From a virus (taxonomy: Duplodnaviria; Heunggongvirae; Uroviricota; Caudoviricetes): 14,868 bases of DNA. The stretch is taken from IMG/VR virus record IMGVR_UViG_2563366990_000002, positions 1-14,868 of that record; one strand, 5' to 3'. The notes under the pieces are model-generated. The model searched no databases. It was not told the DNA's origin and saw only the letters and a list, made by a program, of their open reading frames with translations. Both the position numbers and the translations under genes were made by a program. Of this stretch, positions 1 to 14,868 are shown piece after piece. Every line of letters starts with the position of its first letter. Position 1 is the stretch's first letter.

Positions 1-12
1 GAAATGTAAGGC

Positions 13-318
13 TTATGGGTCATTTCTGCGTTCCTTCTGCTTCAGGTAGCGGTCTGCCAGACGGCAAAAGCATTCTTCAATAAAGGCGCTGCCCATAATG
101 CCCAGCGCGCACGCCAGACCGACCACAACCAGTTCCGGCATGTCCGGAAATTTAAACAGCGGAATGGCGGCAACCGGTGCCACGGCAGAGCCCATAATCA
201 TTCGCCCGATAAGCAGACGGGCTGTGATGCGATCGCGGCTCACCATGAGACGCCCCAGCCCGATGGCAGCACCGATGATAATCAGTTTTGCCAGGAGTGA
301 AGTCTGACCGTCCGGCAT
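13..318 (-). CDS. small phage membrane protein, possibly holin-like (function tentative)
   Basis: 101-aa ORF with about three hydrophobic helix-like segments (LLAKLIIIGAAIGLGRLMV, IMGSAVAPVAAIPLF, LVVVGLACALGIMGSAFI); ATG at 318 lies 4 nt after the stop of the upstream tube-like gene, with a GGGGTGA Shine-Dalgarno-like motif. Product inferred from size and hydrophobicity only. Confidence 0.45.
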   Translation of the reverse strand: MPDGQTSLLAKLIIIGAAIGLGRLMVSRDRITARLLIGRMIMGSAVAPVAAIPLFKFPDMPELVVVGLACALGIMGSAFIEECFCRLADRYLKQKERRNDP

Positions 319-322
319 GGCA

Positions 323-784
323 TCACCCCTTCAGATCGCGGGTGTCACGGGCTGACAGGTAGGGCACGCCGTCAATGCTGATAAAGTCCGGGCTTGTGAC
401 CATGAACTTGATTTTTTTCGTGGTCTTTCCGGCTTCACCTGCGCTGATGTTCACCACGTCCGACAACATGGGGACGCAGCCGAATACCTCGATTTTTTCC
501 TCCTCGCTGCCGTTGTTGGCATAAAAGAGAAAATCCTTTTCAGGAATGGCACGCCACGACCCCGCAGAGCGGGCCACAGCACCAAACTTTTTAAAGTTCT
601 GCGCGTCGACTTCCACCTCCACATCGGCAGAAACAGAACCACGGGTGTAGCCGTTTGGCACGCCGCGCGTCTGTGCCACGGCGCTGTTGTCGGTGATGGT
701 GACGGTGGCGCTTTCCACGTGGATCATGATCCCGTCGTAGTTGATATCAAACGCGCCGCCGCTGATACGTTCATTTCCGGCCAT
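323..784 (-). CDS. putative phage tail tube-like structural protein
   Basis: 153 aa from ATG at 784 (MAGNERISGG...), preceded by GGAG; start lies 1 nt after the stop of the upstream sheath-like gene. Size and position directly after the sheath-like gene suggest a tube protein; I chose the 784 start over the longer 814 start because 814 overlaps the sheath-like gene. Confidence 0.5.
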   Translation of the reverse strand: MAGNERISGGAFDINYDGIMIHVESATVTITDNSAVAQTRGVPNGYTRGSVSADVEVEVDAQNFKKFGAVARSAGSWRAIPEKDFLFYANNGSEEEKIEVFGCVPMLSDVVNISAGEAGKTTKKIKFMVTSPDFISIDGVPYLSARDTRDLKG

Positions 785-785
785 G

Positions 786-1931
786 TCAGATCTCCAGTGC
801 TGTGTCGAGTTCAATACTTACGCCAATGGCTTTTGCGCTCTCGTAGGGGCGTACCACAATGTAAATCTGCACGTGTGTACTGCTGGTCCAGACGATGGTG
901 ATATCCCCGTCCTGTGGCGGTTTAACCTCGCCGGGGAACGGTACGCCGTTAATCTCCGTGGCGAGCGCCATTTCACGCAGCGTGCGGCTGAAATATGTCT
1001 GGCTGGCGGCAATGCTGCCCGGTGTGCTGTTGAGTGCGCGATCCGCAAGGCGGGCAATGGCGCGCAGACGTACACGGCGGGAGACCTTATCCACCACGCG
1101 CACGTTTTCGATGACCTGGTAATCGCCCCCCTCCACATCAAGGGTGCGTCCGTCTGACCAGTAGAGCCCGTCGAAATCGTGATACCACATGGGCACGCTG
1201 AAGCGTTTGCCTTCCAGCGAGCGCAGCGTGGCCAGCTCAAGGGGCTGTTTCTTGCCGTCCTGCGGGATCTCATCGTTACCCATCGCCACCAGGGCACCGG
1301 TTGCCACACGTGCCGGACTGTCCGCAACGGTGACGGAAGGATTACAGAGACGGCCCGCCAGTACGCCGGGCTCATTTCCCCATAAGCGGGGAACCACCAT
1401 CACGCCAGGTGCTGCCACGCCGTCCTGTATGGCACTGATGCGGGTGACGTATGCCGCCCATGCCTCATCCTTGCCCGGTCCGGCCACGCACAGCATGAAC
1501 CAGACAAAGCGGCCATAAGCGGACTGAAGCAGGGCGCGGGTTTCGGTGGCGCGGTTAACGGCATCTTTGGCCGTGATGTCAATGGCAATCACCACGCCCT
1601 CGGCAGAGGCGATGGTCTGCGCTTTTTTCACCGCGTCCACCCATGCGGCGTTAGCGTCGCCACCCTCCGGTGCCGGGGGTTTGGGTTCAGACAGAACGTG
1701 AACATAGGCAAACCAGTTCTGGCCACCGTTGGCGATTGCGGCGCTAAGCGTGGATTTAAGCAGGCTTTCATCCGGTCCCAGCACGTCGTCCAGGTCGGTC
1801 TCAGGGGAGACGGAAAGGGTGTTACCTGTGTTCTTTTTGCCATAGCCCACAAAAAGCAGCGTGCGCTCCACTTCACGGGTGGCACCGTTGAAACGGTTCT
1901 GATGGCTTACGGTTACATTCGGCCAGCTCAC
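786..1931 (-). CDS. putative phage tail sheath-like structural protein
   Basis: 381-aa ORF starting with GTG at 1931, preceded by AAGGAG at 7-nt spacing; tightly packed after the virion morphogenesis gene. Sheath assignment is from size, position and general resemblance to contractile-tail structural proteins, not from a verified motif. Confidence 0.5.
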   Translation of the reverse strand: MSWPNVTVSHQNRFNGATREVERTLLFVGYGKKNTGNTLSVSPETDLDDVLGPDESLLKSTLSAAIANGGQNWFAYVHVLSEPKPPAPEGGDANAAWVDAVKKAQTIASAEGVVIAIDITAKDAVNRATETRALLQSAYGRFVWFMLCVAGPGKDEAWAAYVTRISAIQDGVAAPGVMVVPRLWGNEPGVLAGRLCNPSVTVADSPARVATGALVAMGNDEIPQDGKKQPLELATLRSLEGKRFSVPMWYHDFDGLYWSDGRTLDVEGGDYQVIENVRVVDKVSRRVRLRAIARLADRALNSTPGSIAASQTYFSRTLREMALATEINGVPFPGEVKPPQDGDITIVWTSSTHVQIYIVVRPYESAKAIGVSIELDTALEI

Positions 1932-1942
1932 GGTGTGACTCC

Positions 1943-2707
1943 TTATCTGATATCCTGTGCGTCAACGTCCAGGCCGTAGCCCATTGCGTTCATCTGGCGT
2001 GCCAGGATGTGTGAAAATTCTTCGTTTGTTACCCCCAGAAAGACGCGCGACGGAAGGGTAATGGTCCATGTCCTTGGGCTGTTACGTTGTCGTATTCCCG
2101 GACCATCACTGCTGTGAAGGTCGCGAAAATTTTCCCAGTCGTCGCGCTCAAATCTTGCCAGCAGCCAGCCTGCCTGTCGGTTAGATACCCTTCTCCGTAT
2201 CATTGACAGGGTGGCTTTTCGCCAGCGCTTGCCGCTTTTCAGCTCAAGCCCCCATGCTCTCAGCGCCTGTGCCTGCTTCAGGGAACACGGTACGGAACGC
2301 CCCGGTTTTTTGTGCCGGAAGCTGTCGCCGTGATAGCGGATGGTGGCGCCGTTGTGATGTGCCCACGCGACGTTACTCGCCGACGCTGTCGGGCCGTATC
2401 TGACTGCGCGGAAATACACCTTCACCGCGTCCTGTCCCGGTATCTCCCGCACTGCCATAAGGCGCGGGAGTTTTTTAAGCATCTTTCCGGTGTTCTTGCC
2501 TGCCTTCTTTTTTTTATTTTTCCGTGGTTCCCACGGCGTGCCGTCTGGTGCGCACTGGTTGCGCTGATGGCGTCTGGCTGCGGCGATAATGCCGTGCCGG
2601 GCAATACGCCATAACAGGCGATGGCGTTTTTTCGGGGGCAGATCCAGCGACTGAAGCATCGCCTGCGCTTCTGCCAGCTGCTGCGGGTTCAGCTGGCCGC
2701 TTATCAT
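1943..2707 (-). CDS. phage virion morphogenesis / tail completion protein (P2 gpS-like family), longer than P2 gpS
   Basis: 254-aa ORF whose ATG overlaps the stop of the upstream gene (ATGA at 2704-2707). The N-terminal region with a PDGTPWEPRK-type segment and basic patch resembles the virion morphogenesis family as I recall it. Contains a Lys-rich stretch encoded by an A8 run. Confidence 0.6.
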   Translation of the reverse strand: MISGQLNPQQLAEAQAMLQSLDLPPKKRHRLLWRIARHGIIAAARRHQRNQCAPDGTPWEPRKNKKKKAGKNTGKMLKKLPRLMAVREIPGQDAVKVYFRAVRYGPTASASNVAWAHHNGATIRYHGDSFRHKKPGRSVPCSLKQAQALRAWGLELKSGKRWRKATLSMIRRRVSNRQAGWLLARFERDDWENFRDLHSSDGPGIRQRNSPRTWTITLPSRVFLGVTNEEFSHILARQMNAMGYGLDVDAQDIR

Positions 2708-3177
2708 TCGCGGCTCCTGCTGACAAACAGCTCCATGGTTTCCGCCGTCCAGATTTCAGGGTTAACCAGTGTCCAGCGTTTCCCCCTGTACGGAACGGGG
2801 CCGTCTTCCTGCACCCGGATGATCAGCGGGTCAGCCAGTCCCACCGTGATATCGAGAAGGCACGAGTCCTCATCGTTAAACTGCGGGTCGACGTTCACAT
2901 CCTCCGGGCGGAATTCCTCCCTCAGTGGGTCCGCGTGCTCTTCCAGCCAGGCCATGACCAGCGCGTAAACCAGCCCCGGTGAGTATTTACGGAACGGGAA
3001 GTTATCCCATGCAATCACGCCGGTGTACGTCATCACGCCCATGCGGATCTGGTCGTTACCCAGCGCCTTCTGACTGCGGATAAGCTGCGCGTCTTCCTGA
3101 CTGCTCATGAAGAACTGCATGGCGTCAGGCGGCAGATTTTCGGTAATGAAGGCGGTCAGGCTTTCCAGCTGGTTCAT
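2704..3177 (-). CDS. phage tail completion / head-tail joining protein (P2 gpR-like, tentative)
   Basis: 157-aa ORF; its ATG overlaps the stop of gpL (ATGA at 3174-3177) and its stop overlaps the start of the next gene. Position directly after gpL and before the gpS-like gene, plus size, suggest a gpR-like completion protein. Confidence 0.5.
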   Translation of the reverse strand: MNQLESLTAFITENLPPDAMQFFMSSQEDAQLIRSQKALGNDQIRMGVMTYTGVIAWDNFPFRKYSPGLVYALVMAWLEEHADPLREEFRPEDVNVDPQFNDEDSCLLDITVGLADPLIIRVQEDGPVPYRGKRWTLVNPEIWTAETMELFVSRSRE

Positions 3178-3647
3178 ATGATGTGCACTCCTGCGCGTCT
3201 GTGCCCCAGCATGTTACGCATGACCAGCGAGGCTTCAGCCAGTAAGGTGGCGCGTGTGTCCTCGCTTTCCTGCCCCGGATAGGTTTCACGGCGACCAATG
3301 GTGGCGAACTCGCCCATAAGATCGGCCTTGGCACGGGCATAAACGGCCTTTTTGTACTGTGCGACCAGCTGGGTTTCATCGCCCATCCTGGCCCCCGGTA
3401 CGTCTGCGGCGCGTTCATGCCCCTGCGCCTTCCAGTGCGCCACAACCGGCGCCAGCGTGGTGTTCACCTCGGCCACTGCGGCAAGCAGCGCCATGGCCGC
3501 CGTGTCGTCGGGTAAATCAGCCGGAAGCGTGCGTGACCCCTGAAGCTCAGCCAGATCAAGGTCCGGCCAGAACGGCTCGCCGTTTGTCACCGTCTGCGGT
3601 GTGGATTTCAGCGGTTTACCGCTGACGCTGAAGCTCGGTTCGCTCAT
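3174..3647 (-). CDS. L: phage head completion / stabilization protein (P2 gpL family)
   Basis: 157 aa from ATG at 3647 (MSEPSFSVSGKPL...), preceded by GAGG at about 6-nt spacing. Size is close to P2 gpL (about 169 aa) and it sits immediately after the small terminase gene as in the P2 O-N-M-L order. Confidence 0.8.
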   Translation of the reverse strand: MSEPSFSVSGKPLKSTPQTVTNGEPFWPDLDLAELQGSRTLPADLPDDTAAMALLAAVAEVNTTLAPVVAHWKAQGHERAADVPGARMGDETQLVAQYKKAVYARAKADLMGEFATIGRRETYPGQESEDTRATLLAEASLVMRNMLGHRRAGVHII

Positions 3648-3754
3648 GACGTGCCTCATATGAATAAAAAGGCGGGCTGTCCGGGATTCCACGGCCATAC
3701 AGTTTCCGTCACTGATGCCTCCTCCCGCGCCCGCCCGGCCCTGCGGGTAGTCGT

Positions 3755-4453
3755 TTACGCTACATTAAGGGCGCTGATGCGTGCCCTGATGCGCGCCCTG
3801 ATACTTTTTACGCCAGCGGTACGGCTCAGTGCTGCCGCCTGTGCCAGGTATGCGTCTGCCTTTTCCAGTACGGCAGTATCATTAATCGCGGTGGCTCTCG
3901 GTTTGCCCGCCTCGTCGCGCAGAAGATACAGCCCGGCAAATCTGAACCACTTCGCGCGGATTTCCTCATGCAGCCGCCACGTGGTGGTGACGTTCCTGAA
4001 GGTGCGCGAAAAATACGGCTCTATGCTGTGTCCGGCCTCGCTGTTGTCGGTGGCCCACTGCAGCACCGTGTCGGCCACGAAGGCGGGCAGGGTGCTACGG
4101 AAGTTGTCCGGCGTGGCCTGGCCTTCACTGATGGCAATGTCTGCCCAGTCAAGGGCGCGACTCAGGTCGCCCGTGTCGAACAGCCAGATGATGCAGTACA
4201 CCAGTACCGGGCAGGCGTGGCGCTTTCCGTCAGCGATATAGCGCTCCGCGACGGGCAGCCAGCGCGGCAGGAGAATGTCGCGCTTGAACGCCAGCCGCTC
4301 TTCACGGACCGGAAGACTGCGCAGCCGTGCCACATCGCGATCAAGCTCCGCGCGTAACAGGTGGAAGCTGACCGGGGAGGCCGTCAGCGCCTCCCGGCGT
4401 TCGAGTGCCTCCTGTGTGCGGATTTTCGCCCGGTGTCGCTGGCAGGGTGTCAT
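3755..4453 (-). CDS. M: terminase small (endonuclease) subunit, P2 gpM family
   Basis: 232-aa ORF directly after the major capsid gene; size and position match P2 gpM (about 247 aa). C-terminus carries an in-frame IRARIRAR repeat. Confidence 0.85.
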   Translation of the reverse strand: MTPCQRHRAKIRTQEALERREALTASPVSFHLLRAELDRDVARLRSLPVREERLAFKRDILLPRWLPVAERYIADGKRHACPVLVYCIIWLFDTGDLSRALDWADIAISEGQATPDNFRSTLPAFVADTVLQWATDNSEAGHSIEPYFSRTFRNVTTTWRLHEEIRAKWFRFAGLYLLRDEAGKPRATAINDTAVLEKADAYLAQAAALSRTAGVKSIRARIRARISALNVA

Positions 4454-4470
4454 TGCGCCGCCCTCTGTGC

Positions 4471-5490
4471 TTATGCGCCGACGTCTTCGGCTTCTTCTGC
4501 GCCCTTGATGGTCAGCTTGTCGTAGGCCGCGTAAATTTCGTCGTGCTCCACGGCGTAACCTTCCATGCGCAGATAGTTATTTTCAAAACGCTTGCGATCG
4601 TCGTTCCACTCCGCACGGCGCTGACGGGTGCCGCGCTGCGTGTAGATGTGAAGGTTTGCCAGCGTGGTGACAATCAGGCGCCCTTCCGGCATGAACGGCG
4701 GGGTGTATGCTGTCAGCCCGGCGATCTGGCGACCGATAAGCTGCGCGGCCACTTTTTCCGTGGGGGCGTCGATGGCGTTAAGCAGCGTCACCTTGTCCTG
4801 TGCCACAAGATCGGGCGCAACCAGTACCACCAGATCCGGATGACCGCGATACGACTCATCAATGAGGGTATGCACGAGGTCTGCCACGGCTGCATCCAGC
4901 CCGATAAAGTCGCCACCCTTGCCCAGCGTCGGGCCAGCCTCCACGATCTGTTTTGCGCTGCGGCCTTTGACGATGGCATGCCAGCCGGTGTTGACGTCCT
5001 CGCCGTTTTTGTTGGTTACCGGGTCGGTATCTTCGGCTACGCTGGTACCGTTAAAGGCGATGCGCAGGATATCCAGCGCAATCTGTCTGTTAACGAAATT
5101 CTGAATGCGGTTAAAGAACTCGTTTTCACTTCCTGCGTTCGCCCAGGTGACCAGTGTGGTGTACAGGAGGTGGGCGCCGGAATCGGTTTCAGCCAGCTTG
5201 TATTCATTCCCGGTAACACCCAGCGGAAGGGTGAAGCGGGCATTTTTTTTACGTCCGGTATGGAGGCCCGGAACGCCGGTGGTAACCACCTGGCCTGTCA
5301 CCTGTTCAACATCCAGCACGTTCGGCAGTTTTGATAAAAACTCGTCGGAGTGCATGATGGCGTCACGCAGCGCGGTCTCCTTCGGGTCAGACAGCGCAAA
5401 ATAGCGTGTGACGTCGTCAACTCCGTTTGCCGCACCCAGCCCGGCAGCGTACTTACGAAGCAGTGATTCGGTTTTCTGGTTCAGTTGCAT
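4471..5490 (-). CDS. N: major capsid protein, P2 gpN family
   Basis: 339-aa ORF between the scaffold and small terminase genes; size close to P2 gpN (about 357 aa) and conserved gene order. Uninterrupted long ORF with normal amino-acid composition. Confidence 0.9.
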   Translation of the reverse strand: MQLNQKTESLLRKYAAGLGAANGVDDVTRYFALSDPKETALRDAIMHSDEFLSKLPNVLDVEQVTGQVVTTGVPGLHTGRKKNARFTLPLGVTGNEYKLAETDSGAHLLYTTLVTWANAGSENEFFNRIQNFVNRQIALDILRIAFNGTSVAEDTDPVTNKNGEDVNTGWHAIVKGRSAKQIVEAGPTLGKGGDFIGLDAAVADLVHTLIDESYRGHPDLVVLVAPDLVAQDKVTLLNAIDAPTEKVAAQLIGRQIAGLTAYTPPFMPEGRLIVTTLANLHIYTQRGTRQRRAEWNDDRKRFENNYLRMEGYAVEHDEIYAAYDKLTIKGAEEAEDVGA

Positions 5491-5501
5491 GTTGCGTATC
5501 C

Positions 5502-6560
5502 TTAAACAAAGTCAAACGGTTTTTCGCTTTCTGCCGGTGTGCCGGCCGGGCGTGGCGTGATGCCGGTGGCTGACAGCTTCGTGGTCAGGTCGTTAAGTTT
5601 TTCGGCAATGGCTTTGATTTCTTCTTTGTCGGTGTCGTCCCGGCGACGGGCGGCAAAGCGGCGGTAACGTTCGCCTTTTTCCGGTGTGATGGTGCTGAAG
5701 GCTTTGATGGCGTCTTCCAGCTTCGCTTTTGCAGCGGTAAAGGCTTCGGCCTTAACCTCGTCTTCCGGGGCGGCTTTCACTTCTTCTGCCAGCTCTGCCA
5801 CCTCTGCGGCGGCGTCGGCGATTTCGGCGGCGATTTCCGCGACTTCGGCTTTTGCTTCTTCCGGCGTGTCTGCTGTGCCCTCGCCAGCGGCAGCGGCGCT
5901 GCCGCCTTCCACCAGGGTGATCAGCTTTTCAAGCAGTGCTTTAATTTCGTCCATTTTTGCGTCCTCGCCTGTATCAGGCTTACTGGTATCGGTGTTGTCG
6001 GTGTTGTCGGTCTGTCCTGCGCTGAACAGGCGTTTCAGGAATGATTCAGGTTTACTGGGGGCATGGGTGGTGTCCGGTGACAGGCTGCCCAGCGTGAACG
6101 TCTGGCAGTTCGCCCGCTGTGCTGTGTATTCCTCGTTGTTCAGGGTGAAGCGTATTTTTTCCGTCCCCAGACTGGCGGGGATATCCGTCACCGCCACGCC
6201 CAGGAGATAGTCGCGTCCGCTCCGGGCGAAGTTCTCCACTATCTCGGCGGATGTGAACAGCTTCTGCCCCAGTCTGTTGGCTTCAATCAGGTACTGGTTA
6301 GGGACCAGCCGCGCGTAGAGGCGGGTTTTACCGTCCTCGCCGGTTTCCGCTTTCAGTGAGTCCACTTCACCCAGATTACTGGTGTACTGGCGGTGTCCGA
6401 TTTCTTCCTCATGCCAGGGCCACAGCATCGCCGTGTAGGTGTTGCGGGAATAGGTTTCAGCGGCATCAGTCAGCCACTGCGGATCAATTTCGCGGCCGTC
6501 AACGGTCGGTCCTGATGTGGCGATACATATCCAGTCGGTCATCAACGTTGGCTGCGGCAT
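5502..6560 (-). CDS. O: capsid scaffolding protein, P2 gpO family, with extended Ala/Glu-rich region
   Basis: 352 aa from ATG at 6560 (MPQPTLMTDW...), preceded by GAGG. First gene of the minus-strand late operon, followed by the capsid gene. Long Ala/Glu/Lys-rich coiled-coil-like region typical of scaffold proteins. The ORF track's longer 408-aa version starts inside the regulatory region and is less likely. Confidence 0.85.
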   Translation of the reverse strand: MPQPTLMTDWICIATSGPTVDGREIDPQWLTDAAETYSRNTYTAMLWPWHEEEIGHRQYTSNLGEVDSLKAETGEDGKTRLYARLVPNQYLIEANRLGQKLFTSAEIVENFARSGRDYLLGVAVTDIPASLGTEKIRFTLNNEEYTAQRANCQTFTLGSLSPDTTHAPSKPESFLKRLFSAGQTDNTDNTDTSKPDTGEDAKMDEIKALLEKLITLVEGGSAAAAGEGTADTPEEAKAEVAEIAAEIADAAAEVAELAEEVKAAPEDEVKAEAFTAAKAKLEDAIKAFSTITPEKGERYRRFAARRRDDTDKEEIKAIAEKLNDLTTKLSATGITPRPAGTPAESEKPFDFV

Positions 6561-6726
6561 CGTGGCCTCTTTTACGTGAAAATCTGAAGAACTCCGGTGA
6601 GTGTCGGGATTTTTACAGCGGGGGGCTACTGGCTGAATTCGGCTGTCTTCGGATAACGTGGGATAGCCGAACACAGCCGAAATTTTCTGCCTGAATGCGG
6701 GCCGGATGCGCCGCCATAATGGGCGC
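6561..6726. promoter_or_regulatory. divergent late-promoter region between the gpO and gpP operons
   Basis: 166-bp non-coding gap between divergently transcribed capsid and terminase/portal operons. Contains a 13-bp imperfect inverted repeat (CGGCTGTCTTCGG at 6640-6652, CCGAACACAGCCG at 6667-6679) and a TGT-N10-ACA element at 6602-6617. In P2 the equivalent region carries Ogr-activated late promoters. Confidence 0.55.
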
Positions 6727-8529
6727 ATGGCTAAATATTCTGACGAAATTAAAGAGGCGGCCCGCTCGCTTTATCTGAAGCGGTGGCATCCCCGAGATAT
6801 TGCGGCGGAGCTCGGTATTCCGCCGCGCACGGTTTACCACTGGTGTGATGTGGGGCAGTGGGCCGCCCTGCTGCCCGCTGAATCCGTTGAGGAGGTGATC
6901 GCCCGGCGTATTGATGTGCTGACCGGGCGCGAGGGTAAGACGGAGTGCGAACTTGCCGAACTGCGCGAGCTTATCGCACAGCACGTGAAGATTATCGCCC
7001 AGAAAAACAAACACGCTGAAAGGATGGCGGAAATTGCCGCCACGCGTCCGGCAGTGTGCGACGACGGTGTGGCGGCGACCAGCGGCGGGGGGGAAGGGAA
7101 AAAGCGGCGCTACCGGAAAAACAACGTTTCCGGGCTGACTGCTGAAATGCTGGATGCATGGGCGCGTAAAAATCTTTATGCCTACCAGCTGCACTGCCGC
7201 GAGAACCGGCACCGTGAGTGGCGTTTCATCCTCAAGAGTCGCCAGATAGGCATGACCTGGTATTTTGCATGGGAGGCGTTCGAAGATGCGGTGGTGACTG
7301 GTGATAACCAGATATTCTTTTCTGCGTCACGGGTTCAGGCGGAAATCTTCCGCGAATATATTATTAATTTCGCCCTGCAGTTCGGGATCACGCTCACGGG
7401 TAAGCATATCCGTTTAAGCAATGGCGCAATGCTGCGTTTCCTGTCCACCAATGCCAGTACCGCCCAGGGATTTAACGGCCACCTTTACGGCGATGAGGTG
7501 TTCTGGATCCCAAAATTCACGCGACTGCATGAAGTGGCCTCGGCAATGGCAACCCACGACAAATACCGCACGACGTACTTTTCGACACCCAGCGCCAAAA
7601 CCCACCAGGCTTATCTGGTCTGGAACGGTGACGACTGGCGCGGGGATGATCCGGCGCGTCGTGCTGTTGAGTTTCCGAAAGAAAGCGCGATGCGTGTGGG
7701 CTGTGAATGCCCTGACGGGATCTGGCGCTACATTATCCGGCTGGAAGAGGCGGTGGCGGGTGGCCTGTCTGCACGGGTTGATATTGAACGTATCAGGAAC
7801 CGCTACAACCCGACCACCTATGCGATGCTGTACGGCTGCGAGTTTGTTGACAGCAAGGATGCGGTATTTAAGTTCTCCGAACTGGTCAGGTGTGAGGTGG
7901 AGATGGAGACGTGGGGTGACTACGATCCCACGGCGGCACGTCCGTTCGGCAATCGTGAGGTGTGGGCGGGCTTTGACCCGTCAAGGTCCGGGGATAATTC
8001 CACGTTTGTAATTGTGGCTCCGCCTGTCCATGAGGGCGAGCGGTTCCGTGTGCTCGCCGTCTGGCAGTGGCAGGGATTTAACTTCACCTGGCAGGCCGAT
8101 CAGATCCGCGAACTGATGCAGCGCTTTAACATTACCTATATCGGCATAGATATCACCGGTATCGGGAAAGGGGTGTTTGATATCGTCAGTCGCTTTGCGC
8201 CACGTGAGGCTAACGCCATTCTTTACAGCGTGGAGAGCAAAAACCGCCTGGTGATGAAAATGATAGACGTGGTGGCCCATAAGCGTATCGAGTGGGCGAA
8301 AGACGCCATTGATGAGGCCAGCCGTGAACGCACGGAGATCCCCGCGTCGTTCATGTCCATACGCCGCACCACCACAAAAAGCGGTAACGCGCTGACGTTC
8401 GTGGCGGAACGGTCGGATGTTACGGGGCATGCGGATGTGTTTTTTGCCATTTCGCACGCCGTGATTAATGAGCCTGTAGATTATGACTATGAACGCCCGT
8501 CCACATGGGCCTTCGGGAAAGCCGCATGA
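6727..8529 (+). CDS. P: terminase large (ATPase) subunit, P2 gpP family
   Basis: 600 aa from ATG at 6727 (MAKYSDEIK...); size matches P2 gpP (about 590 aa). Divergent from gpO and followed by the portal gene with a 4-nt ATGA overlap. An alternative start at 6706 would add 7 aa. Confidence 0.9.
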   Translation: MAKYSDEIKEAARSLYLKRWHPRDIAAELGIPPRTVYHWCDVGQWAALLPAESVEEVIARRIDVLTGREGKTECELAELRELIAQHVKIIAQKNKHAERMAEIAATRPAVCDDGVAATSGGGEGKKRRYRKNNVSGLTAEMLDAWARKNLYAYQLHCRENRHREWRFILKSRQIGMTWYFAWEAFEDAVVTGDNQIFFSASRVQAEIFREYIINFALQFGITLTGKHIRLSNGAMLRFLSTNASTAQGFNGHLYGDEVFWIPKFTRLHEVASAMATHDKYRTTYFSTPSAKTHQAYLVWNGDDWRGDDPARRAVEFPKESAMRVGCECPDGIWRYIIRLEEAVAGGLSARVDIERIRNRYNPTTYAMLYGCEFVDSKDAVFKFSELVRCEVEMETWGDYDPTAARPFGNREVWAGFDPSRSGDNSTFVIVAPPVHEGERFRVLAVWQWQGFNFTWQADQIRELMQRFNITYIGIDITGIGKGVFDIVSRFAPREANAILYSVESKNRLVMKMIDVVAHKRIEWAKDAIDEASRERTEIPASFMSIRRTTTKSGNALTFVAERSDVTGHADVFFAISHAVINEPVDYDYERPSTWAFGKAA

Positions 8530-9578
8530 GCAAGAAACGCAGAAACAAAACGTCACGCGTGACGAAAAAAGCATTCACGCCCGCACGTGGCAGCACAATC
8601 ACGTTTGGTCAGCCGGAACCGGTGCTGACCACCGGCACGGACTACCATAACATCTGGTATGACAACGAACACAACCACTGGCAGCTGCCGATTAACCGCC
8701 TGGCACTGGCGCAGCTCCCGAACCTTAACGCCCAGCACGGTGGGGTGCTGTATGCCCGCCGTAACATGGTGGCGGGGGGCTATACCGGTGGTGGTCTCAC
8801 AACGGACCAGATGGAACAGGCGGTATTTGACTACCTGTTGTTCGGCGATCTCGCCCTGCTCAAGGTGCGTAACGTATTCGGCGACGTCGTGGCACTTGAG
8901 CCGCTTCCGTCGCTGTATCTCCGGCGCCGCAAAACCGGTGAGTTCGTGGTGCTTCAGGAAGGTCCCGCGCTGGTCTATACGCCGGAAGATATTATCTTTC
9001 TGCGGATGTATGATCCGCGTCAGCAAATTTACGGGCTGCCGGATTATATCGGTGGCATCCACTCGGCGCTGCTGAACAGCGAGGCCAGCCTTTTTCGTCG
9101 CCGTTACTACAACAACGGGGCGCATATGGGCTTTTTGCTGTATACGAACGACCCTGGGATCACCACGGAGATGGAGGATGAGATCCGCGAGAAGGTGGCG
9201 GAGTCTAAGGGGCTGGGAAATTTCCGCAATCTGTACATCAACATCCCCAAAGGTTCGCCGGATGGGGTGAAAATTATTCCGATTGGTGAGGTGAGCGCCA
9301 AGGATGAATTTTCAAACATCAAGGGGATCAGCGCCCAGGATGTGTTTACGGCACACCGCTTTCCTGCCGGTCTTGCGGGGATTATCCCCACGAACGGGGC
9401 CACCATCCCTAACCCGGAAACGACGCGTGAAACGTACCGCAAGGATGAGGTGATACCGCTTCAGCGTAAAATCATGAACGCCGTGAACAGCGATCCCGAT
9501 ATACCGGAACACCTTTATCTTTGTTTTGATGTGGATGCCGGGCATGTGGCGGAAGAAAAAGCGGTGCCGGTCGGGTAA
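8526..9578 (+). CDS. Q: portal protein, P2 gpQ family
   Basis: 350 aa from ATG at 8526 (MSKKRRNK...), overlapping the gpP stop. Size matches P2 gpQ (about 344 aa) and P-then-Q co-transcription matches P2. Confidence 0.9.
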   Translation: MSKKRRNKTSRVTKKAFTPARGSTITFGQPEPVLTTGTDYHNIWYDNEHNHWQLPINRLALAQLPNLNAQHGGVLYARRNMVAGGYTGGGLTTDQMEQAVFDYLLFGDLALLKVRNVFGDVVALEPLPSLYLRRRKTGEFVVLQEGPALVYTPEDIIFLRMYDPRQQIYGLPDYIGGIHSALLNSEASLFRRRYYNNGAHMGFLLYTNDPGITTEMEDEIREKVAESKGLGNFRNLYINIPKGSPDGVKIIPIGEVSAKDEFSNIKGISAQDVFTAHRFPAGLAGIIPTNGATIPNPETTRETYRKDEVIPLQRKIMNAVNSDPDIPEHLYLCFDVDAGHVAEEKAVPVG

Positions 9579-9615
9579 AATGTCCTCCCCGGAATACGTG
9601 TTATCGGGAGGTAAG

Positions 9616-9879
9616 ATGCGGATTTTTAAAGCCCGGTGTCCTGACTGTGGCGCACCTGCTGTCATCCGGAAGACAGACTGGAAAACCCCTGAACTTGCGG
9701 ATCTGTACTGTGCATGCAGTGATGTCGAATGCGGGCATACCTTCGTCTGTACGATGACCTTTTCCCATACCCTCAGCCCCGGTGCCCGCTCCGGTCGCAA
9801 TATGGTGAAGTTTCTTGTTGATGCCATGCGCCCGGAAGATCGCCGGTATGCGCTTGAACTACTGTCGCGGCGTTCCTGA
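9616..9879 (+). CDS. Ogr/Delta-family C4 zinc-finger transcriptional activator homolog
   Basis: 87 aa from ATG at 9616, preceded by strong GGGAGG at 4-nt spacing. Motif CPDC-x20-C-x-C-x4-C-x2-TF aligns with P2 Ogr (CPLC ... YHQCQNVNCSATF). Has a roughly 40-aa C-terminal extension relative to the zinc-finger core. Confidence 0.8.
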   Translation: MRIFKARCPDCGAPAVIRKTDWKTPELADLYCACSDVECGHTFVCTMTFSHTLSPGARSGRNMVKFLVDAMRPEDRRYALELLSRRS

Positions 9880-9895
9880 CGCGCTTCGCTTGTCT

Positions 9896-9940
9896 GCTGC
9901 TTCGCCGGGGCAAAAAGAATTTTTACCCCGGCGAAGCAGC
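9896..9940. repeat. perfect 15-bp-stem inverted repeat (GCTGCTTCGCCGGGG ... CCCCGGCGAAGCAGC) with A5/T5 loop
   Basis: Read directly from the sequence. Located 17 bp after the Ogr-like gene stop. No U-tract follows on either strand, so it is not a classic intrinsic terminator; could be an RNA stability or termination element or a protein-binding or packaging-related site. Confidence 0.7.
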
Positions 9941-9975
9941 CCTGATAAAGGGGGGGGGTGGTGTAAATTCGGACG

Positions 9976-10007
9976 TTATAAAATTAAAAAAGCGCCGTAA
10001 CGGCGCT
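9976..10007 (-). terminator. rho-independent terminator for the minus-strand 75-aa gene
   Basis: Hairpin AGCGCCG-TAA-CGGCGCT at 9991-10007 followed on the minus strand by TTTTTAATTTT (9976-9990), 30 nt downstream of the stop at 10038. Confidence 0.65.
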
Positions 10008-10037
10008 CGGGTAGAGTATTTATTCATGCAAAAATAG

Positions 10038-10265
10038 TTAATCCGGCTCCCCTCGTATTATTGTTTCTGTATGAATATCGGGAATCTGTTTTGTACCGGA
10101 TAGATATTTTACAGCAAGACTCATTAAGTCATTGTAATTATAATCCCTTCCAGCTACAGCTCCACTCAGGATGTAGGCGTCTTCAATATTGGCTGCGATG
10201 CAGGACAAGATATCAGCTAAAAGGGTTGTATCGTAGTTCGTATAGCGTTTGATTAGATGAGACAT
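10038..10265 (-). CDS. hypothetical 75-aa protein, AT-rich accessory (moron-like) gene
   Basis: ATG at 10265 preceded by GGAGG at 4-nt spacing; own terminator downstream and AT-rich upstream promoter-like region. Local GC is far below the rest of the window. No recognisable family. The ORF track's longer 90-aa version lacks a ribosome-binding site. Confidence 0.6.
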   Translation of the reverse strand: MSHLIKRYTNYDTTLLADILSCIAANIEDAYILSGAVAGRDYNYNDLMSLAVKYLSGTKQIPDIHTETIIRGEPD

Positions 10266-10445
10266 AAAACCTCCGGGTTGCTTATTAATATTGCTGGCGA
10301 AATCAGTCATTGTGTTAGCTATGTAATATTAACAGAAGTGTAAAGTGTTTTTATTCCGGGGTGGTAATGTTGCATATATTTTCTTAGTGTGTGTCGGGTG
10401 AATGAATTGCGTTGCGGTGAAAAAATCGGGCGCGTCAGTGCGGCC

Positions 10446-10601
10446 TTACTGCTGACGGCGTTCCCGGAGTTCGGTCAGTGCTGCAAGTAAATTCTCCCAC
10501 CACGTTTCTTCCACGACCGGGTTTTGTCGTGAAAGCAGCTGCTGTGCCGACTCAATCATTTTCGTAAGCTCTCTGTCGCTGATCCTCCTGGTGCTGTTCA
10601 T
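10446..10601 (-). CDS. hypothetical 51-aa protein
   Basis: ATG at 10601 (MNSTRRISDRELTK...) preceded by AAGGAG at 6-nt spacing; 48 bp downstream of the preceding ORF in the same orientation; weak hairpin plus T6 after the stop. Charged and helical in character. Confidence 0.5.
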   Translation of the reverse strand: MNSTRRISDRELTKMIESAQQLLSRQNPVVEETWWENLLAALTELRERRQQ

Positions 10602-10649
10602 GGTGCGCTCCTTTAGTTGGCTGTTTCTGGTTATGTTCATGGTCTTTGT

Positions 10650-11054
10650 TTACCTGCGTGATTGTCTGCCAGCGGCTGAATGCACATAGCGGGCAATTGC
10701 CGCTTTGCGGTTAATCGATGCCAGTGTTCTGGTGAGTTCTGCGTTGTGTTTGTGTGCCTGCTCTTCGTGGTACTGCCGCATGATTTTTCCGGCAGGCGTG
10801 AGCGGCTCCGGCTCTCCGGGCGGACGGCGCGGACGAACGGCGACAAGCCAGCTGCGGTTGGTGCTGTCCGGTCGTCCGTTGAGTATGTCGGTGATGATGG
10901 TCGTGGTGGTGCGATCGGGACTGACGACCGTGATTTCCAGCTCATCGCCCGGTTGTGGCCCCGTGGCAATGTTGTTCAGGGTCAGTAAGGGCGTGCGCTG
11001 GCGCATCAGTTCGTCAAAACGCTGTCGCTGCATGGCGCAATAAAAGCGGGTCAT
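10650..11054 (-). CDS. hypothetical 134-aa protein, translationally coupled to the replication gene
   Basis: ATG at 11054 overlaps the gpA stop (ATGA at 11051-11054). Pro/Arg-rich sequence with no recognised family. The region is GC-rich with several overlapping alternative-frame ORFs, so coding status is moderately uncertain. Confidence 0.5.
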   Translation of the reverse strand: MTRFYCAMQRQRFDELMRQRTPLLTLNNIATGPQPGDELEITVVSPDRTTTTIITDILNGRPDSTNRSWLVAVRPRRPPGEPEPLTPAGKIMRQYHEEQAHKHNAELTRTLASINRKAAIARYVHSAAGRQSRR

Positions 11055-13570
11055 TGTGGCGCCTCCGTATTCGGTGCGGGGGTGATATCAATGCGGCGGG
11101 TGCTGTCATTCCAGTACGAGGTGCGCCCGTCAGCCAGGCGCACGCGGGCACCGTGACGGACGGAAACGACGGCGCTTTCATGCAGCTGCACGCCCAGCGC
11201 ATCAAGCTCGCGGGTGATTTGTGCGGTGATGTGTGGCTCAGCGGTCAGAGCGACACTCACGCGAACGCCGCCAGCGGGCGCACTGATGCCGCCGTTTTTC
11301 ACGGTTTCCGTGTCAGGTGGCGGGCTTTTCAGCTGCCTGGTGAGTTGTTTTCGCTCTGTGGGGGTCAGTGACCTTAACCATTCACCCAAATCACCTTCCG
11401 GCAGGGTAAGTCGCTGCTCCCTGCGTCCGTCCGGCTGCCTTTCTGGCGGGTCGTTTATGGTCAGATTCTGGTCAGGGGGACAGTTATTGCCACGAGTCCA
11501 AGGTGCGGCAAAGCCGCACTCAACGTCAAAACCCTCGTCCGTGCGGTCTTCGTTTTCCGGCTTACGTCTGACCAGTTTCCAGGTGTCCGGGTGGGTGCAT
11601 ATGGTGTAGCGCTCCCCGAGTGACGGGGCGCGGACGCCGTAAATACGTTGCGGGAATTCGCCGTAGTCGTTGGCCTCTTCGGCAGTTTCGTATGCGGTGC
11701 GGACCAGGTACGTGTTGCGGGGAATGAGCACACCACCCTGGCGGGTGATATAGGTGGCAAAACATCCCACGTCGGCGGCGGCCAGTATGGCGTCAATGTC
11801 GTCATGGTCCAGACGCTGCGGGGCAGCCGGGTTACGGGCCATCTGCCCGGCAAGACGGCGGAGTTCGCGCCATACCTGGCGGGGCGGGATACCGAAGAAC
11901 TGGAACTGGTGGATGCGGTGAAGGCCTGCCCAGCCGATGGCGTTCTCCACGGTTTCGGCCATGGTTTTGCCTGATTCCTTATCGACGTAAGGTTTGCCGG
12001 TTTTCGGGTCATTCCCCATGAAGGTGCTGGCGTCCAGGTTCTTACCGATATAGGTCGCGATATAGCTTGTCGGTGTGCCTTTTGTCGGGTCGATTTTTTC
12101 GCATTTAAAACGCGGGGAGATATCATCACCCAGCTCTGCGCGGTCCTCCCTGATGGCGGCGTTGCGCATGATTTCAGTGATACGGGCTTCGTTTTCCTGG
12201 CTGGTGAATACCAGCATGTGCCAGTGCGGTGTACCGTCGTGGTGGGGCTCCACTGTGCGCACGCCGTACCAGCCCAGCCCGGCCTTGTCGATGGCCCTGC
12301 GGACGGCGGCGAAAAAGCGGTAAACCAGATAATCACTGGCATCGCGTACCGTTGCTCCGCAGTATTTCGGGTTCAGGCTGCCGTCATCGTTCACGCTGTG
12401 AAAACGGGAAGGGGCTGTGACGGTGACGAAAAACGCCACGTCGCCGCGTGCTTCGGCGACCTGCTCCATCCCCCGGACGCAGGCCATCATCTCGTTACGG
12501 CGGTTACGCGGATTAGAGAGACCTGCCCAGTAGATATCCTCAAGGCTGAACCGTTCTCCCTCTTCGTTCTCGATGTCCCAGGCCTTCAGAAAATCGCGGG
12601 TGCGCTGGCGTTTTTCGCGCCAGTCCAGTAACGCTTCATGGCTGATATATACCGACGTCTTACGTGACACCAGGCCTGCGGCGCGTAACAGCTCTTCACG
12701 CCAGATGTCCCGGAGGTGTCTTAACTGACTGTTCCACCATGTCGCACAGGAAAGGCGCATGACCGCACCCGGCACCCGTTCCGGGTCGGGGTCGGTGCGG
12801 CGGTCGGGCCTGATTTCCAGCGACGGCCAGCAGGGTGGCGTGATACCCAGTTTTAACGCCATGTGTGCCAGTGGCTGGTAGGTCAGTAACCAGGTGAGCA
12901 GGTCATCGTCACCCCTGCCGGTCTTTTCGATGACTTCATCACATGCGCGCTCCAGTGCGGTGGAAAACGCGGTGGCGGTCAGGGTGGCAAGGCGCTGGAT
13001 TTCGTCACGGCTCAGCTGTGGCAGCATAAGCAGTTCATCCAGCCGTTCGCGCGCGGCGGTGGCCTTAAAGGCCGGGGTGGCAAAGCGTTCATTCACACGG
13101 GCGATACGTTTCAGGCGGGCACGCAGCCCGTGACGAACGAAGTTATCCGCCGCATATGCGCTGTTATTCTTAAGCCCTTCCCGGCGTGCGCTCTCCTGTT
13201 TGCGGCTCAGGCGCGCCAGGTCACGGATGAGCGGACCGGCAAGAAACGGCGGCAGGGCGCGCAGCTCTGCCATGGCTTCAGATACCAGCGTTGGCGGATT
13301 TTCGCGTTTGTGTCGCGTCAGTTTTTCCAGTCTGATCCGACGCTCTTCGTCGTGATGAAGATGCGAATTAATTCGCTTCCCTTCGTCTGTGGTTGTCAGG
13401 AAGGCGACGGTTTCTTCATCCAGTCTGGCGTCAGTGCGAATATCCTCGTTGATGTAGCTCTGAATGGCCTGGCGTAATGCGGTTGGCTGCGCTCTGCCGA
13501 ACGTTTCAGGATCGATAACCGGTAGCGGGGCGTTCCACGGGTACGCCAGCTGTGCATTGTGGTCACTCAT
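11051..13570 (-). CDS. A: replication initiation endonuclease, P2 gpA family (rolling-circle HUH nickase)
   Basis: 839 aa from ATG at 13570 (MSDHNAQLAYPW...). Contains the HUH-type motif PHWHMLVF characteristic of P2 A / phiX174 A-type rolling-circle initiators; size comparable to P2 gpA (about 761 aa). The track's GTG start at 13579 is less likely than the ATG that overlaps the upstream stop. Confidence 0.9.
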   Translation of the reverse strand: MSDHNAQLAYPWNAPLPVIDPETFGRAQPTALRQAIQSYINEDIRTDARLDEETVAFLTTTDEGKRINSHLHHDEERRIRLEKLTRHKRENPPTLVSEAMAELRALPPFLAGPLIRDLARLSRKQESARREGLKNNSAYAADNFVRHGLRARLKRIARVNERFATPAFKATAARERLDELLMLPQLSRDEIQRLATLTATAFSTALERACDEVIEKTGRGDDDLLTWLLTYQPLAHMALKLGITPPCWPSLEIRPDRRTDPDPERVPGAVMRLSCATWWNSQLRHLRDIWREELLRAAGLVSRKTSVYISHEALLDWREKRQRTRDFLKAWDIENEEGERFSLEDIYWAGLSNPRNRRNEMMACVRGMEQVAEARGDVAFFVTVTAPSRFHSVNDDGSLNPKYCGATVRDASDYLVYRFFAAVRRAIDKAGLGWYGVRTVEPHHDGTPHWHMLVFTSQENEARITEIMRNAAIREDRAELGDDISPRFKCEKIDPTKGTPTSYIATYIGKNLDASTFMGNDPKTGKPYVDKESGKTMAETVENAIGWAGLHRIHQFQFFGIPPRQVWRELRRLAGQMARNPAAPQRLDHDDIDAILAAADVGCFATYITRQGGVLIPRNTYLVRTAYETAEEANDYGEFPQRIYGVRAPSLGERYTICTHPDTWKLVRRKPENEDRTDEGFDVECGFAAPWTRGNNCPPDQNLTINDPPERQPDGRREQRLTLPEGDLGEWLRSLTPTERKQLTRQLKSPPPDTETVKNGGISAPAGGVRVSVALTAEPHITAQITRELDALGVQLHESAVVSVRHGARVRLADGRTSYWNDSTRRIDITPAPNTEAPQ

Positions 13571-13983
13571 GCGTCGCACTCCCCGGCAGTCGCCGCCTGA
13601 AACGCCGCGCGGTACAGCACGAGAAGGCGCTGGTATTCACCGATAAAGTCTTCTGCGGTGTATATGCCTTTCACGGCCACGCTGTGCGTTGTCATTTCCA
13701 GAACAAGCGTCATCTCTGACGACGACCAGCTGATGGCGGTGCTGTCGGTTCCGTTGATGTGAAATAAACCAAAACCATCACCATCGCCTTTCACGTCCAC
13801 GCGGTAACGGCCGTCAACGGTGAAGGAGAAATCCCCGTATGTGGTGACGCGTCTGGCGGCCTGTTTACAGGCGCGGCGGTAATAGTCGTGCCAGTCGTTC
13901 AGGCGGGAAGCCAGCCGGGGATCCACTGCCCACATCCAGTTAAAAAAATCCTGAATATCTGAAAGTCCCTTAACGCTCTTCAT
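13567..13983 (-). CDS. hypothetical 138-aa early-operon protein
   Basis: ATG at 13983 preceded by GGAGG at 5-nt spacing; stop overlaps the gpA start (ATGA at 13567-13570). Position corresponds to the small ORFs upstream of A in P2-like early operons. Confidence 0.6.
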   Translation of the reverse strand: MKSVKGLSDIQDFFNWMWAVDPRLASRLNDWHDYYRRACKQAARRVTTYGDFSFTVDGRYRVDVKGDGDGFGLFHINGTDSTAISWSSSEMTLVLEMTTHSVAVKGIYTAEDFIGEYQRLLVLYRAAFQAATAGECDA

Positions 13984-14051
13984 GAGAACCTCCGGTAACA
14001 GACGTGCGGAAGCCTCCCGCGCACGGGTGCGGGATGGCTTCAGGATGTTGT

Positions 14052-14333
14052 TTAGTGGTGGTGTTGCTGCTGGTTGATAAGGTCCTGCAGTTCTGCCAGG
14101 TCTTCGGCCAGATAGCTGAAGACTGCCGCGTAATACCCGGCAGCGATACCATCGTTAAGTCGATGTAATGCGTTTGACTGCATGATGAAGGTGACAGATG
14201 CAGCCCGATGGAGTCTGCGGTTAATTTCAGTGCGGATGTGAAGACGCTCAGCGCGGGCGCGCTGTTGGTGACTGGAGTTCAGACGTGTGCTCTTCCGATC
14301 TGCGCGGGCGCGCTGTTGTTTGCGGTTTGCCAT
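14052..14333 (-). CDS. hypothetical small early-operon protein, reading frame contaminated by a 51-bp adapter-derived insertion
   Basis: ATG at 14333 preceded by GAGG. The encoded segment ADRKSTRLNSSHQQRAR (and SEEHTSELQSPTARPR in the overlapping 14248..14514 minus-strand track ORF) comes from the Illumina adapter plus duplicated flank; the native protein is probably about 76 aa. Confidence 0.5.
   Translation of the reverse strand: MANRKQQRARADRKSTRLNSSHQQRARAERLHIRTEINRRLHRAASVTFIMQSNALHRLNDGIAAGYYAAVFSYLAEDLAELQDLINQQQHHH
14268..14301 (+). other. Illumina TruSeq adapter sequence (GTGACTGGAGTTCAGACGTGTGCTCTTCCGATCT), assembly contamination
   Basis: Exact 34-nt match to the standard Illumina adapter as I recall it, flanked by a perfect 17-bp direct duplication GCGCGGGCGCGCTGTTG at 14251-14267 and 14302-14318. 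Confidence 0.9.
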
Positions 14334-14505
14334 GGTGTGGCCTCTTTGGTTGTGAATTTTGAAAACTCACCATCCAGAGGTGGAAAACTCGGGGTGGCGA
14401 GGCGTACAGGGTTTCCACAACCGGTAACCAAAGAACCCGGCCCGACCGAAGTCGGCCCCGTACGCCCCGCCATAATTCTGACGCGAAAAAGACGTGGCAA
14501 TACAG

Positions 14506-14531
14506 TACGCACAAAAAAACCGCTGGCGCGG
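14506..14531 (-). terminator. candidate intrinsic terminator on the minus strand
   Basis: On the minus strand, a short stem AACCGC-GCCA-GCGGTT followed by a T7 run (plus-strand A7 at 14513-14519), about 125 nt downstream of the truncated minus-strand ORF ending at 14654. Stem is short, so strength is uncertain. Confidence 0.4.
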
Positions 14532-14653
14532 TTGTGCGCTTTGGTTATCGGCGGGGTGGAAATCCCGGCACCCGTTTTATGAGGTGCGGGAAAACTGTAA
14601 CCCGACCAGGCGAACGCTGGCAAGCGGTTTTTTTGTGTGTGCATGATGATCAC

Positions 14654-14868
14654 TCAGCCCGGTAACAGTTCACAGAGCACTGCGTCAGTTGCGGTGCGGC
14701 GGTGGTAGAGATGAAACGCCGCATCGTCGTTAATGTGCATCTGTATCGTGCTGTTGATGTGTTCAGCGATCATGCAGAACGTCATGTTGTGTATGTCGCG
14801 TAGCTCCGTGACCAGCTCAACCAGATGATCGCTGTATCTGGCGCAATGGTGGTTCTCACCGCATTTTT
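14654..14868 (-). CDS. hypothetical protein, 5'-truncated by the window edge
   Basis: Open frame on the minus strand running from the window end to a TGA at 14654-14656 (...HINSTIQMHINDDAAFHLYHRRTATDAVLCELLPG). Same orientation as the early operon; identity unknown. Confidence 0.45.
   Translation of the reverse strand, partial: KCGENHHCARYSDHLVELVTELRDIHNMTFCMIAEHINSTIQMHINDDAAFHLYHRRTATDAVLCELLPG

Follow-up and report, generated by a model that had tools for sequence, protein, structure and literature searches.

The stretch of DNA analysed here (IMG/VR record IMGVR_UViG_2563366990_000002, positions 1 to 14,868; hereafter “the window”) comprises the head and early regions of an Escherichia coli prophage of the P2 family (Peduoviridae). 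Between the portal gene, which ends at position 9578 on the plus strand, and the gene for a gpA-type replication endonuclease, which ends at 11051 on the minus strand, the window holds an interval of 1.47 kb, on which the two genes converge. This interval is very probably the gpA-gpQ accessory hotspot of a P2-family prophage and a composite of genes that are fixed in the lineage and one small exchangeable cassette, which carries a single gene of 75 codons termed orf75. The hotspot itself is already known, and the window adds one more occupant; of its parts, only the Orf75 protein family is somewhat novel. Taken as a whole, a composite hotspot with an accessory role for Orf75 is a likely explanation of the locus.

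The gpA-gpQ interval and its flanks

Both flanks of the interval are assigned by family matches. The portal gene (8505-9578, plus strand), a homologue of gpQ and the left conserved flank, matches the Pfam family Phage_portal and phrog_68 (E 1e-119), constitutes the last structural gene of the terminase-portal late operon and is 97-99% identical in relatives. The right conserved flank, the gpA-type rolling-circle replication endonuclease gene (11051-13579, minus strand), matches PF05840 (Phage_GPA) with 358 bits and phrog_91 with an E-value of 5e-234. These Pfam and PHROG identities confirm the convergence of a portal and a gpA-like initiator gene on about 1.5 kb, which a first-pass annotation made from the sequence alone had proposed. 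The interval contains an Ogr/Delta-type zinc-finger gene, a very stable hairpin, a tract of nine G residues (G9), a terminator and three small minus-strand genes; accordingly, the zinc finger, the G9 tract, the terminator and the open reading frames (ORFs) of 51 and 134 amino acids (aa) listed at first pass are all present.

In P2-like prophages, the gpA-gpQ interval has been described as a hotspot: across 18,150 E. coli loci it occurs in 1,650 arrangements (Rousset et al. 2022, PMC9122126). The occupants in P2 are old and tin, and several new defence systems were validated (PMC9122126). Out of eight further P2-hotspot systems that were cloned, three defended, as did old-tin, and according to the authors more than one third of all cloned systems were active (PMC9122126). 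Rapid swapping at the gpA-gpQ hotspot has been confirmed by a 2026 preprint (bioRxiv 10.64898/2026.02.27.708500).

The window interval resembles this old/tin site in several respects: it is bounded by the replication endonuclease and portal genes, as the Pfam and PHROG identities of both flanks attest, its content is swapped among prophages with near-identical flanks, and the insert is AT-rich. The earlier proposal of a variable cargo site positionally equivalent to the tin/old locus of P2 thus coincides with a documented hotspot (PMC9122126). The interval differs from the published site in that its cargo is one 75-aa gene with no recognisable defence system, in that part of it consists of fixed lineage genes, and in that the published site adjoins cos, whereas no P2-type cos is detectable here. 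The OLD-family nuclease of P2 (ATPase plus TOPRIM) and Tin have no counterpart in the interval, where no Pfam, PADLOC or NCBIfam match to them was obtained and the largest ORF encodes 134 aa. The statement that nothing in the interval resembles old, tin or a known defence gene also stands, as no PADLOC model is matched by any of the four proteins.

Conserved flanks and an exchanged middle

Both flanks recur at 97-99% identity in twelve complete E. coli genomes, in all of which the middle is replaced. The alignment with related prophages suggested at first pass therefore yields conserved flanks and a variable centre. Among the relatives (numbered with the prefix L), L001 harbours a 187-aa and a 54-aa gene in this position, L002 a 72-aa gene together with the same 54-aa gene, and L003 a MarR-like gene of 108 aa; including the window, four different inserts are found between flanks that are 97-99% identical. 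By megablast, the left breakpoint corresponds to window position 9930 and the right breakpoint to 10388 (L001, L002) or 10456 (L003, L036). The swappable cassette accordingly spans 9931-10387, or extends to 10455 in comparison with the MarR-type relatives, and holds a terminator, orf75 and the orf75 upstream region. The left junction lies inside a conserved hairpin element, and the right junction coincides with the 3' end of orf51 or the spacer beyond.

The exact 134-aa protein of the window is encoded in ten distinct places, nine of which hold the MarR cassette (MarR plus 56 aa) in place of orf75; among these ten, orf75 is found only on the window's own scaffold. Based on the breakpoints and on these nine MarR cassettes next to an identical orf134, the exchangeable DNA amounts to approximately 460-525 bp and one gene. 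Its GC content is 39% (9952-10387), compared to 56-60% in the flanking genes (60% in gpA). As judged from the breakpoints, the cassettes would be swapped by homologous recombination in the conserved flanks.

All relatives examined carry the genes for Ogr, orf51/64 and orf134 in syntenic positions, with 93-100% conservation in the members of the lineage. By this sequence comparison these three are fixed lineage genes rather than cargo. Much of a gpA-to-gpQ interval can therefore be made up of fixed genes (here Ogr, a protein with a predicted ASCH-like fold and orf51), and censuses that count everything between the anchors overstate the cargo.

The orf75 gene and its product

The AT-rich ORF is open over 10038-10310 (90 aa). 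Since the homologues are 73-75 aa long and a GGAGG motif (10274-10270) precedes Met16, the gene is assigned to 10041-10265 on the minus strand with GGAGG as its Shine-Dalgarno site, which upholds the length of 75 aa given at first pass. The ratio of nonsynonymous to synonymous substitution rates (dN/dS) is 0.06-0.18, with synonymous sites near saturation, and orf75 is a real gene under strong purifying selection.

An intrinsic terminator on the same strand (10008-9990; 8-bp stem with six GC pairs, followed by TTTTAATTTT) starts about 30 nt after the orf75 stop codon; this call rests mainly on position, because two sites were found in the region while 2.7 are expected by chance. On its other side the gene is preceded by an AT-rich spacer of 180 bp, and a weak candidate for an extended -10 element (TGTTAATAT; 10326-10334, minus strand) was recognised by eye only. 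The cassette is self-contained, comprising a Shine-Dalgarno site, the 75-aa ORF and an intrinsic terminator. Phage morons, as in lambdoid phages, are self-contained promoter-gene-terminator inserts. Orf75 resembles a moron in being encoded by an AT-rich single gene with its own terminator, which lies between conserved genes and is dispensable among relatives; it differs in that its promoter in the window is only a candidate, and in that the same gene is operonic in other lineages. The non-coding DNA of the cassette further includes the G9 homopolymer (9950-9958), the length of which varies in near-identical prophages: G9 in the window is represented by G8, an A-extended G8 or G5TGG in L005-L009. 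This variation looks like slippage in non-coding DNA and indicates no function.

The Orf75 protein is acidic (pI 4.85, net charge -4.3) and harbours no catalytic, enzymatic or membrane motif. Its AlphaFold2 (AF2) model, with a pLDDT of 89.3, comprises two helices (residues 16-33 and 44-57). No match was obtained in Pfam, PHROG, PADLOC or NCBIfam, nor among PDB sequences (by profile search) or PDB folds; a Foldseek search of the viral folds in BFVD gave a best E-value of 1.1, and the shared core of 38 family members retrieved nothing from Pfam and PHROGs.

Distribution and genomic contexts of the Orf75 family

Close homologues of Orf75 are rare and form only five clusters at 90% identity among the 5.8 billion clusters searched. 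A full HMMER scan of 1.8 billion representatives yielded 61 matches at E <= 1e-3, of which approximately 55 small proteins are left after discarding repeat proteins; the long multi-repeat matches P0054, P0077, P0082 and P0090 are leucine-rich repeat (LRR) or other repeat proteins and were rejected as spurious. The family shares the core L-I-K/R-R-Y..YD..L.D.L..IAANIED....GA.PG.DY.Y.DL. A tblastn search of 50,697 isolated phage records with Orf75 and two relatives revealed no homologue, and a “distant” blastn search of complete E. coli genomes with the cassette found nothing.

In at least six P2-like lineages the Orf75 homologue closes the series of genes that run in the gpA direction, directly before the Ogr/portal end and irrespective of its upstream neighbour. 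The upstream neighbour is orf51 in the window lineage (L005-L009), ParM/StbB in L010-L013 (a lineage with ParM/StbB and Ogr) and in the P88-like L021-L023, Phd/Fic in Enterobacter (L014) and HicA/HicB in Kosakonia (L033); in L026 and L032 this neighbour encodes 144 or 106 aa. Throughout these lineages the Orf75 family gene is AT-rich (36-44% GC, compared to 53-55% for the locus). The modules upstream of the Orf75 homologue in L010-L013, L021-L023, L014 and L033 are of the plasmid stability type, namely ParM/StbB partition, a Phd-Fic/Doc pair and a HicA-HicB pair.

Distant relatives occupy further contexts. One (L029) lies directly upstream of a VapE primase-helicase gene and is fused to a winged-helix-like tail, another (L047) ends an operon for a single-stranded DNA-binding protein (SSB) and a beta-clamp, and others lie between TerL and the portal (L019) or adjoin Rha (L027). 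Some are fused to an AlpA helix-turn-helix, an RNA-polymerase alpha-CTD-like or a YozE/SAM-like domain. The fusions and the replication-gene contexts suggest a protein-interaction module that works with DNA-bound machinery.

Possible roles of Orf75

As a two-helix acidic mini-domain without catalytic or membrane motif, Orf75 would act by binding a partner and not by catalysis. The distant relatives, with their fusions to DNA-binding modules and their location where replication operons end (gpA, VapE, SSB/beta-clamp), point to an accessory modulator of a DNA-associated partner, which would be produced together with the early replication genes or shortly after them. It might serve in phage-host or phage-phage conflict, but not as a stand-alone killer of the Old/Tin type. 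We put forward this role of Orf75 as a binding-type accessory modulator only tentatively. A more far-reaching version, which we regard as improbable, holds that Orf75 founds an undescribed family of mini-proteins of approximately 55-75 aa at the end of the early/replication operon, which in P2-like phages adjoins the packaging end. These would represent a new kind of conflict protein that might, for instance, titrate a replication factor or DNA-bound regulator belonging to the host, a competing phage or a P4-like satellite; one relative is fused to AlpA.

Several observations weigh against the account given so far. The fusion partners are single metagenomic proteins with E-values of 1e-4 to 1e-7, the domain homology of which is plausible by sequence only. 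A consensus sigma-70 scan of 9400-11200 detected no promoter. The hotspot has been published as cos-adjacent, yet no cos was found here, although it may be divergent. Swapping by recombination in the flanks is a conjecture drawn solely from the breakpoints. Finally, the fixed terminal position of the gene in many lineages and its operonic overlap in L026 and L032 fit a semi-core early gene equally well.

Such a semi-core accessory of the early/replication operon, for instance an adaptor or regulator working with the initiator, SSB, helicase or a DNA-binding regulator, which was lost or replaced in some lineages, is a possibility that we hold with reserve. It would account for the invariably terminal place of orf75 in the gpA-direction operon of the P2-like lineages, for the homologue that overlaps its upstream gene in L026 and the one that abuts it in L032, for the distant homologues upstream of VapE and at the end of the SSB/beta-clamp operon, and for the fusions to DNA-binding modules. 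However, orf75 is missing from 12 of 12 complete-genome relatives and from nine of the ten places with an identical orf134, the isolated phage records lack a homologue, and P88 and SI7 carry other genes in their gpA-portal intervals. Moreover, the gene is AT-rich compared to every host phage and has its own terminator and upstream spacer in the window. The same presence/absence polymorphism in near-identical prophages, the moron-like build and the residence in the hotspot of old and tin, where three of eight further cloned systems defended (PMC9122126), would instead suit a superinfection-exclusion or defence gene, which is expressed in the lysogen as an analogue of P2 tin/old. This is rather unlikely in view of a soluble protein of 75 aa with neither enzymatic nor transmembrane feature, no PADLOC or Pfam match and no consensus promoter; furthermore, the other cargos of the slot match no known defence model, and the MarR-like protein of the alternative cassette yields weak winged-helix matches only.

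We are likewise sceptical of a role in counter-defence or host takeover, in which Orf75 would be a small acidic inhibitor encoded at the genome end that enters first. According to the older P2 literature, the right end of the DNA lies towards the tail in the phage head. The acidity and very small size of the protein and the strong purifying selection on its gene are in keeping with this role, and where cos is recognisable (L014, L021) the family gene adjoins the cos-proximal right end. Yet Orf75 resembles no known anti-defence protein or fold, the isolated phage records searched contain no member of the family, and the “first in” idea is unsupported here, because cos was not located in the window lineage. 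The most inclusive reading, in which all four small genes, and with them the full 1.5 kb, are unrelated cargo, draws on the heterogeneity of these genes, three of which lack an assigned function. It is highly improbable: the comparison with relatives refutes it for three of the four genes, as Ogr, orf51/64 and orf134 are syntenic and conserved throughout the lineage, orf134 appears to be translationally coupled to gpA and Ogr is a putative core regulator. The earlier suggestion that the interval holds uncharacterised cargo consequently survives for the orf75 cassette of approximately 460-525 bp but fails for the other three genes. Conservation and synteny of the small genes, named at first pass as evidence to the contrary, were found for these three and not for orf75.

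Whichever role applies, the Orf75 family is tiny, strongly conserved and unannotated. With its locked position and its fusions to DNA-binding domains, it provides a cheap candidate for assays of defence, counter-defence and regulation.

A conserved hairpin element at the left junction

The left junction of the cassette falls into a conserved non-coding element of about 60 nt (9877-9940), which consists of a left half, TGACGCGCTTCGCTTGTCTGCTGCTTCGCCGGGGCA, followed by a hairpin (9896-9940). The hairpin described at first pass is indeed present, but instead of a 15-bp stem it has arms of 21 nt with 95% complementarity and one mismatch. As RNA it folds with -48.8 kcal/mol (z -5.7) on the plus strand and -43.5 kcal/mol (z -7.3) on the minus strand; none of 200 shuffles was as good, and its stability is far beyond chance. 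The variable DNA begins just past the loop, in the first bases of the right arm (approximately 9926-9931).

A match of 57-70 nt at 90-93% identity adjoins portal or Ogr genes in approximately 1,100 E. coli chromosomes and in P88-like phages, including L018 (P88) at 3501-3557. The left half and a short core hairpin are conserved although the neighbouring genes are too diverged for megablast. The left half TGACGCGCTTCGCTTGTCTGCTGCTTCGCCGGGGCA is common to the P88-like prophages, and GCTTCGC occurs twice in the element. In most versions only GGGGCAnAAA/TTTnTGCCCC pairs, and the full 21-nt stem is found in the window and in L010. The long stem is reached via changes in the right arm in the window and via changes in the left arm in L010, a compensatory pattern; double-sided changes affect three pairs of the arms. 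The window and L010, in which the long stem arose independently, contain one copy of the element each. L021 has two in direct orientation (about 6990-6925 and about 6395-6330), one on each side of the cos-like region, and the second, diverged copy adjoins the Orf75 homologue.

No T-run follows the stem on either strand (CCCTGATAAAG on plus, CAGACAAGCG on minus), and a terminator scan did not report the hairpin, which is therefore not a canonical intrinsic terminator. It may mark the 3' end of the late operon or insulate it, as a conserved element at which recombination is anchored as well. The hairpin was also considered as an integron-like attC site, a reading dropped because the prophage annotation of the relatives contains no integron integrase.

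Fixed genes of the interval

The Ogr/Delta-type zinc-finger gene (9616-9879, plus strand; 87 aa) starts 37 bp after the portal gene and is co-oriented with it. Its product matches PF04606 with 57.4 bits (gathering cut-off 26.3) and phrog_603, “transcriptional regulator”, with E 6e-30. The cysteines at positions 8, 11, 34 and 39 form a CxxC-x22-C-x4-C pattern, which we take to be the spacing of P2 Ogr. The gene occupies the same place in L001-L003, L005-L013, L026, L036-L045 and the isolated phage SI7. By these sequence criteria the protein is most probably a late-gene activator of the Ogr/Delta type and a core regulator rather than cargo. It shares with the activators Ogr (P2), Delta (P4) and B (186) the above-threshold match to PF04606, a cysteine spacing that is presumably identical, and a similar size. 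P2 ogr lies near att, and 186 B follows the replication region in the other orientation. The window gene differs in being located directly downstream of the portal gene and co-oriented with it, a layout shared with the Irrigatiovirus SI7. A hairpin that sequesters the Shine-Dalgarno site before Ogr was looked for in 9575-9625, where folding is no better than in shuffles (z -0.44).

The small helical protein encoded by orf51/64 (10446-10640, minus strand) matches phrog_14672 (function not known) with E 9e-29. The PHROG alignment begins at residue 14, and the “51-aa” gene is an inner start of a 64-aa ORF; the likely start is thus Met14 (10601), giving 51 aa. In relatives the gene is annotated with 51, 56, 64 or 69 aa. 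The 64-aa reading is created by a 39-bp tandem duplication of the orf51 start region (10588-10604 and 10627-10643; MNITRNSQLKERT and MNSTRRISDRELT).

The gene orf134 (10650-11054, minus strand) encodes a basic protein (pI 10.7) that matches phrog_14984. It overlaps gpA as ATGA, an arrangement that predicts translational coupling of the two genes. The AF2 model (pLDDT 84) comprises an N-terminal beta-barrel (residues 3-75) followed by a C-terminal helix of 47 residues, and the barrel is predicted to adopt an ASCH/PUA-like fold. Proteins of this fold class are known to bind modified nucleotides. Orf134 shares the PUA-like beta-barrel with PDB 3iuw and E. coli YqfB, whereas identity is only 7-20%, the 47-residue helix is an addition and no Pfam family, ASCH included, is matched at E up to 0.1. 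DNA methyltransferases are encoded elsewhere in the phage by relatives and by SI7. The profile and structure searches recommended at first pass for the small proteins therefore returned the Ogr family and the ASCH-like fold of orf134, but no match for orf75.

Search for a cos site

The 19-mer of P2 cos is absent from the window at up to three mismatches, and at up to six mismatches the only matches lie in distant structural-gene regions. Nothing in the window is similar to the cos regions of P88 or L014. The cos-like block common to L014 (GGCGAGGCGGGGGAATGAG) and P88, with its TGTGCA repeats, is missing from the window lineage and from L010-L013, and a cos scan of an entire relative prophage (L025) found none. 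In SI7 (L035, 29495-29522) only 26 bp and a terminator lie between the cargo and Ogr, leaving no room for cos there. A recognisable cos is located near the Orf75 homologue in L014 and L021. The analogy to the cos-adjacent site of P2 therefore holds for the position, and a P2-type cos in the interval was not found. The window lineage and the Irrigatiovirus SI7 appear to be without a P2-type cos next to the portal, which questions the assumed link between hotspot and cos.

Two candidates for cos were rejected. The right hairpin arm of relatives (GGTGAGTCGGGGCAAAAAT) agrees with P2 cos in 13 of 19 positions, which is about chance level, and the window arm in nine of 19. The GC-rich gap between gpM and gpL (3648-3754), considered as a relocated cos, recurs as the same block in L014, where a clear cos adjoins the portal. 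This 107-bp non-coding block (GGGCGGGCGCGG ... CAGCCCGCC; minus strand), located within the late operon, is conserved in SI7, L010, L011, L014 and L026. It thus belongs to P2-like phages in general and may be a regulatory site or a structured RNA.

Genomic setting and further observations

Over 7150-14554 the window is 100% identical to the E. coli scaffold KB732775.1 (assembly GCA_000351685.1; L044). The head region carries the scaffold, capsid, small terminase, gpL and gpR-like genes on the minus strand and the large terminase gene (6706-8529) on the plus strand. There is no close isolated phage: the structural genes are approximately 71% identical to the Salmonella Irrigatiovirus SI7, and the early region is approximately 78-80% identical to the P88-like Xuanwuvirus. 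An Rfam search returned a sub-threshold nrdJ match only, and a tRNA search found none.

Two genes just upstream of gpA encode a conserved 138-aa protein (13567-13983, minus strand; phrog_3237) and a “Derepression” family protein (14055-14333, minus strand; PF25738, 27.4 bits at a cut-off of 27). The relative prophage L025 (NZ_AP045170.1) is inserted between dmsA and serS. Three Hok/Gef toxin genes, set in long spacers of non-coding DNA, lie at its end (41087-43519), and the annotation marks its tail-fibre genes as broken.

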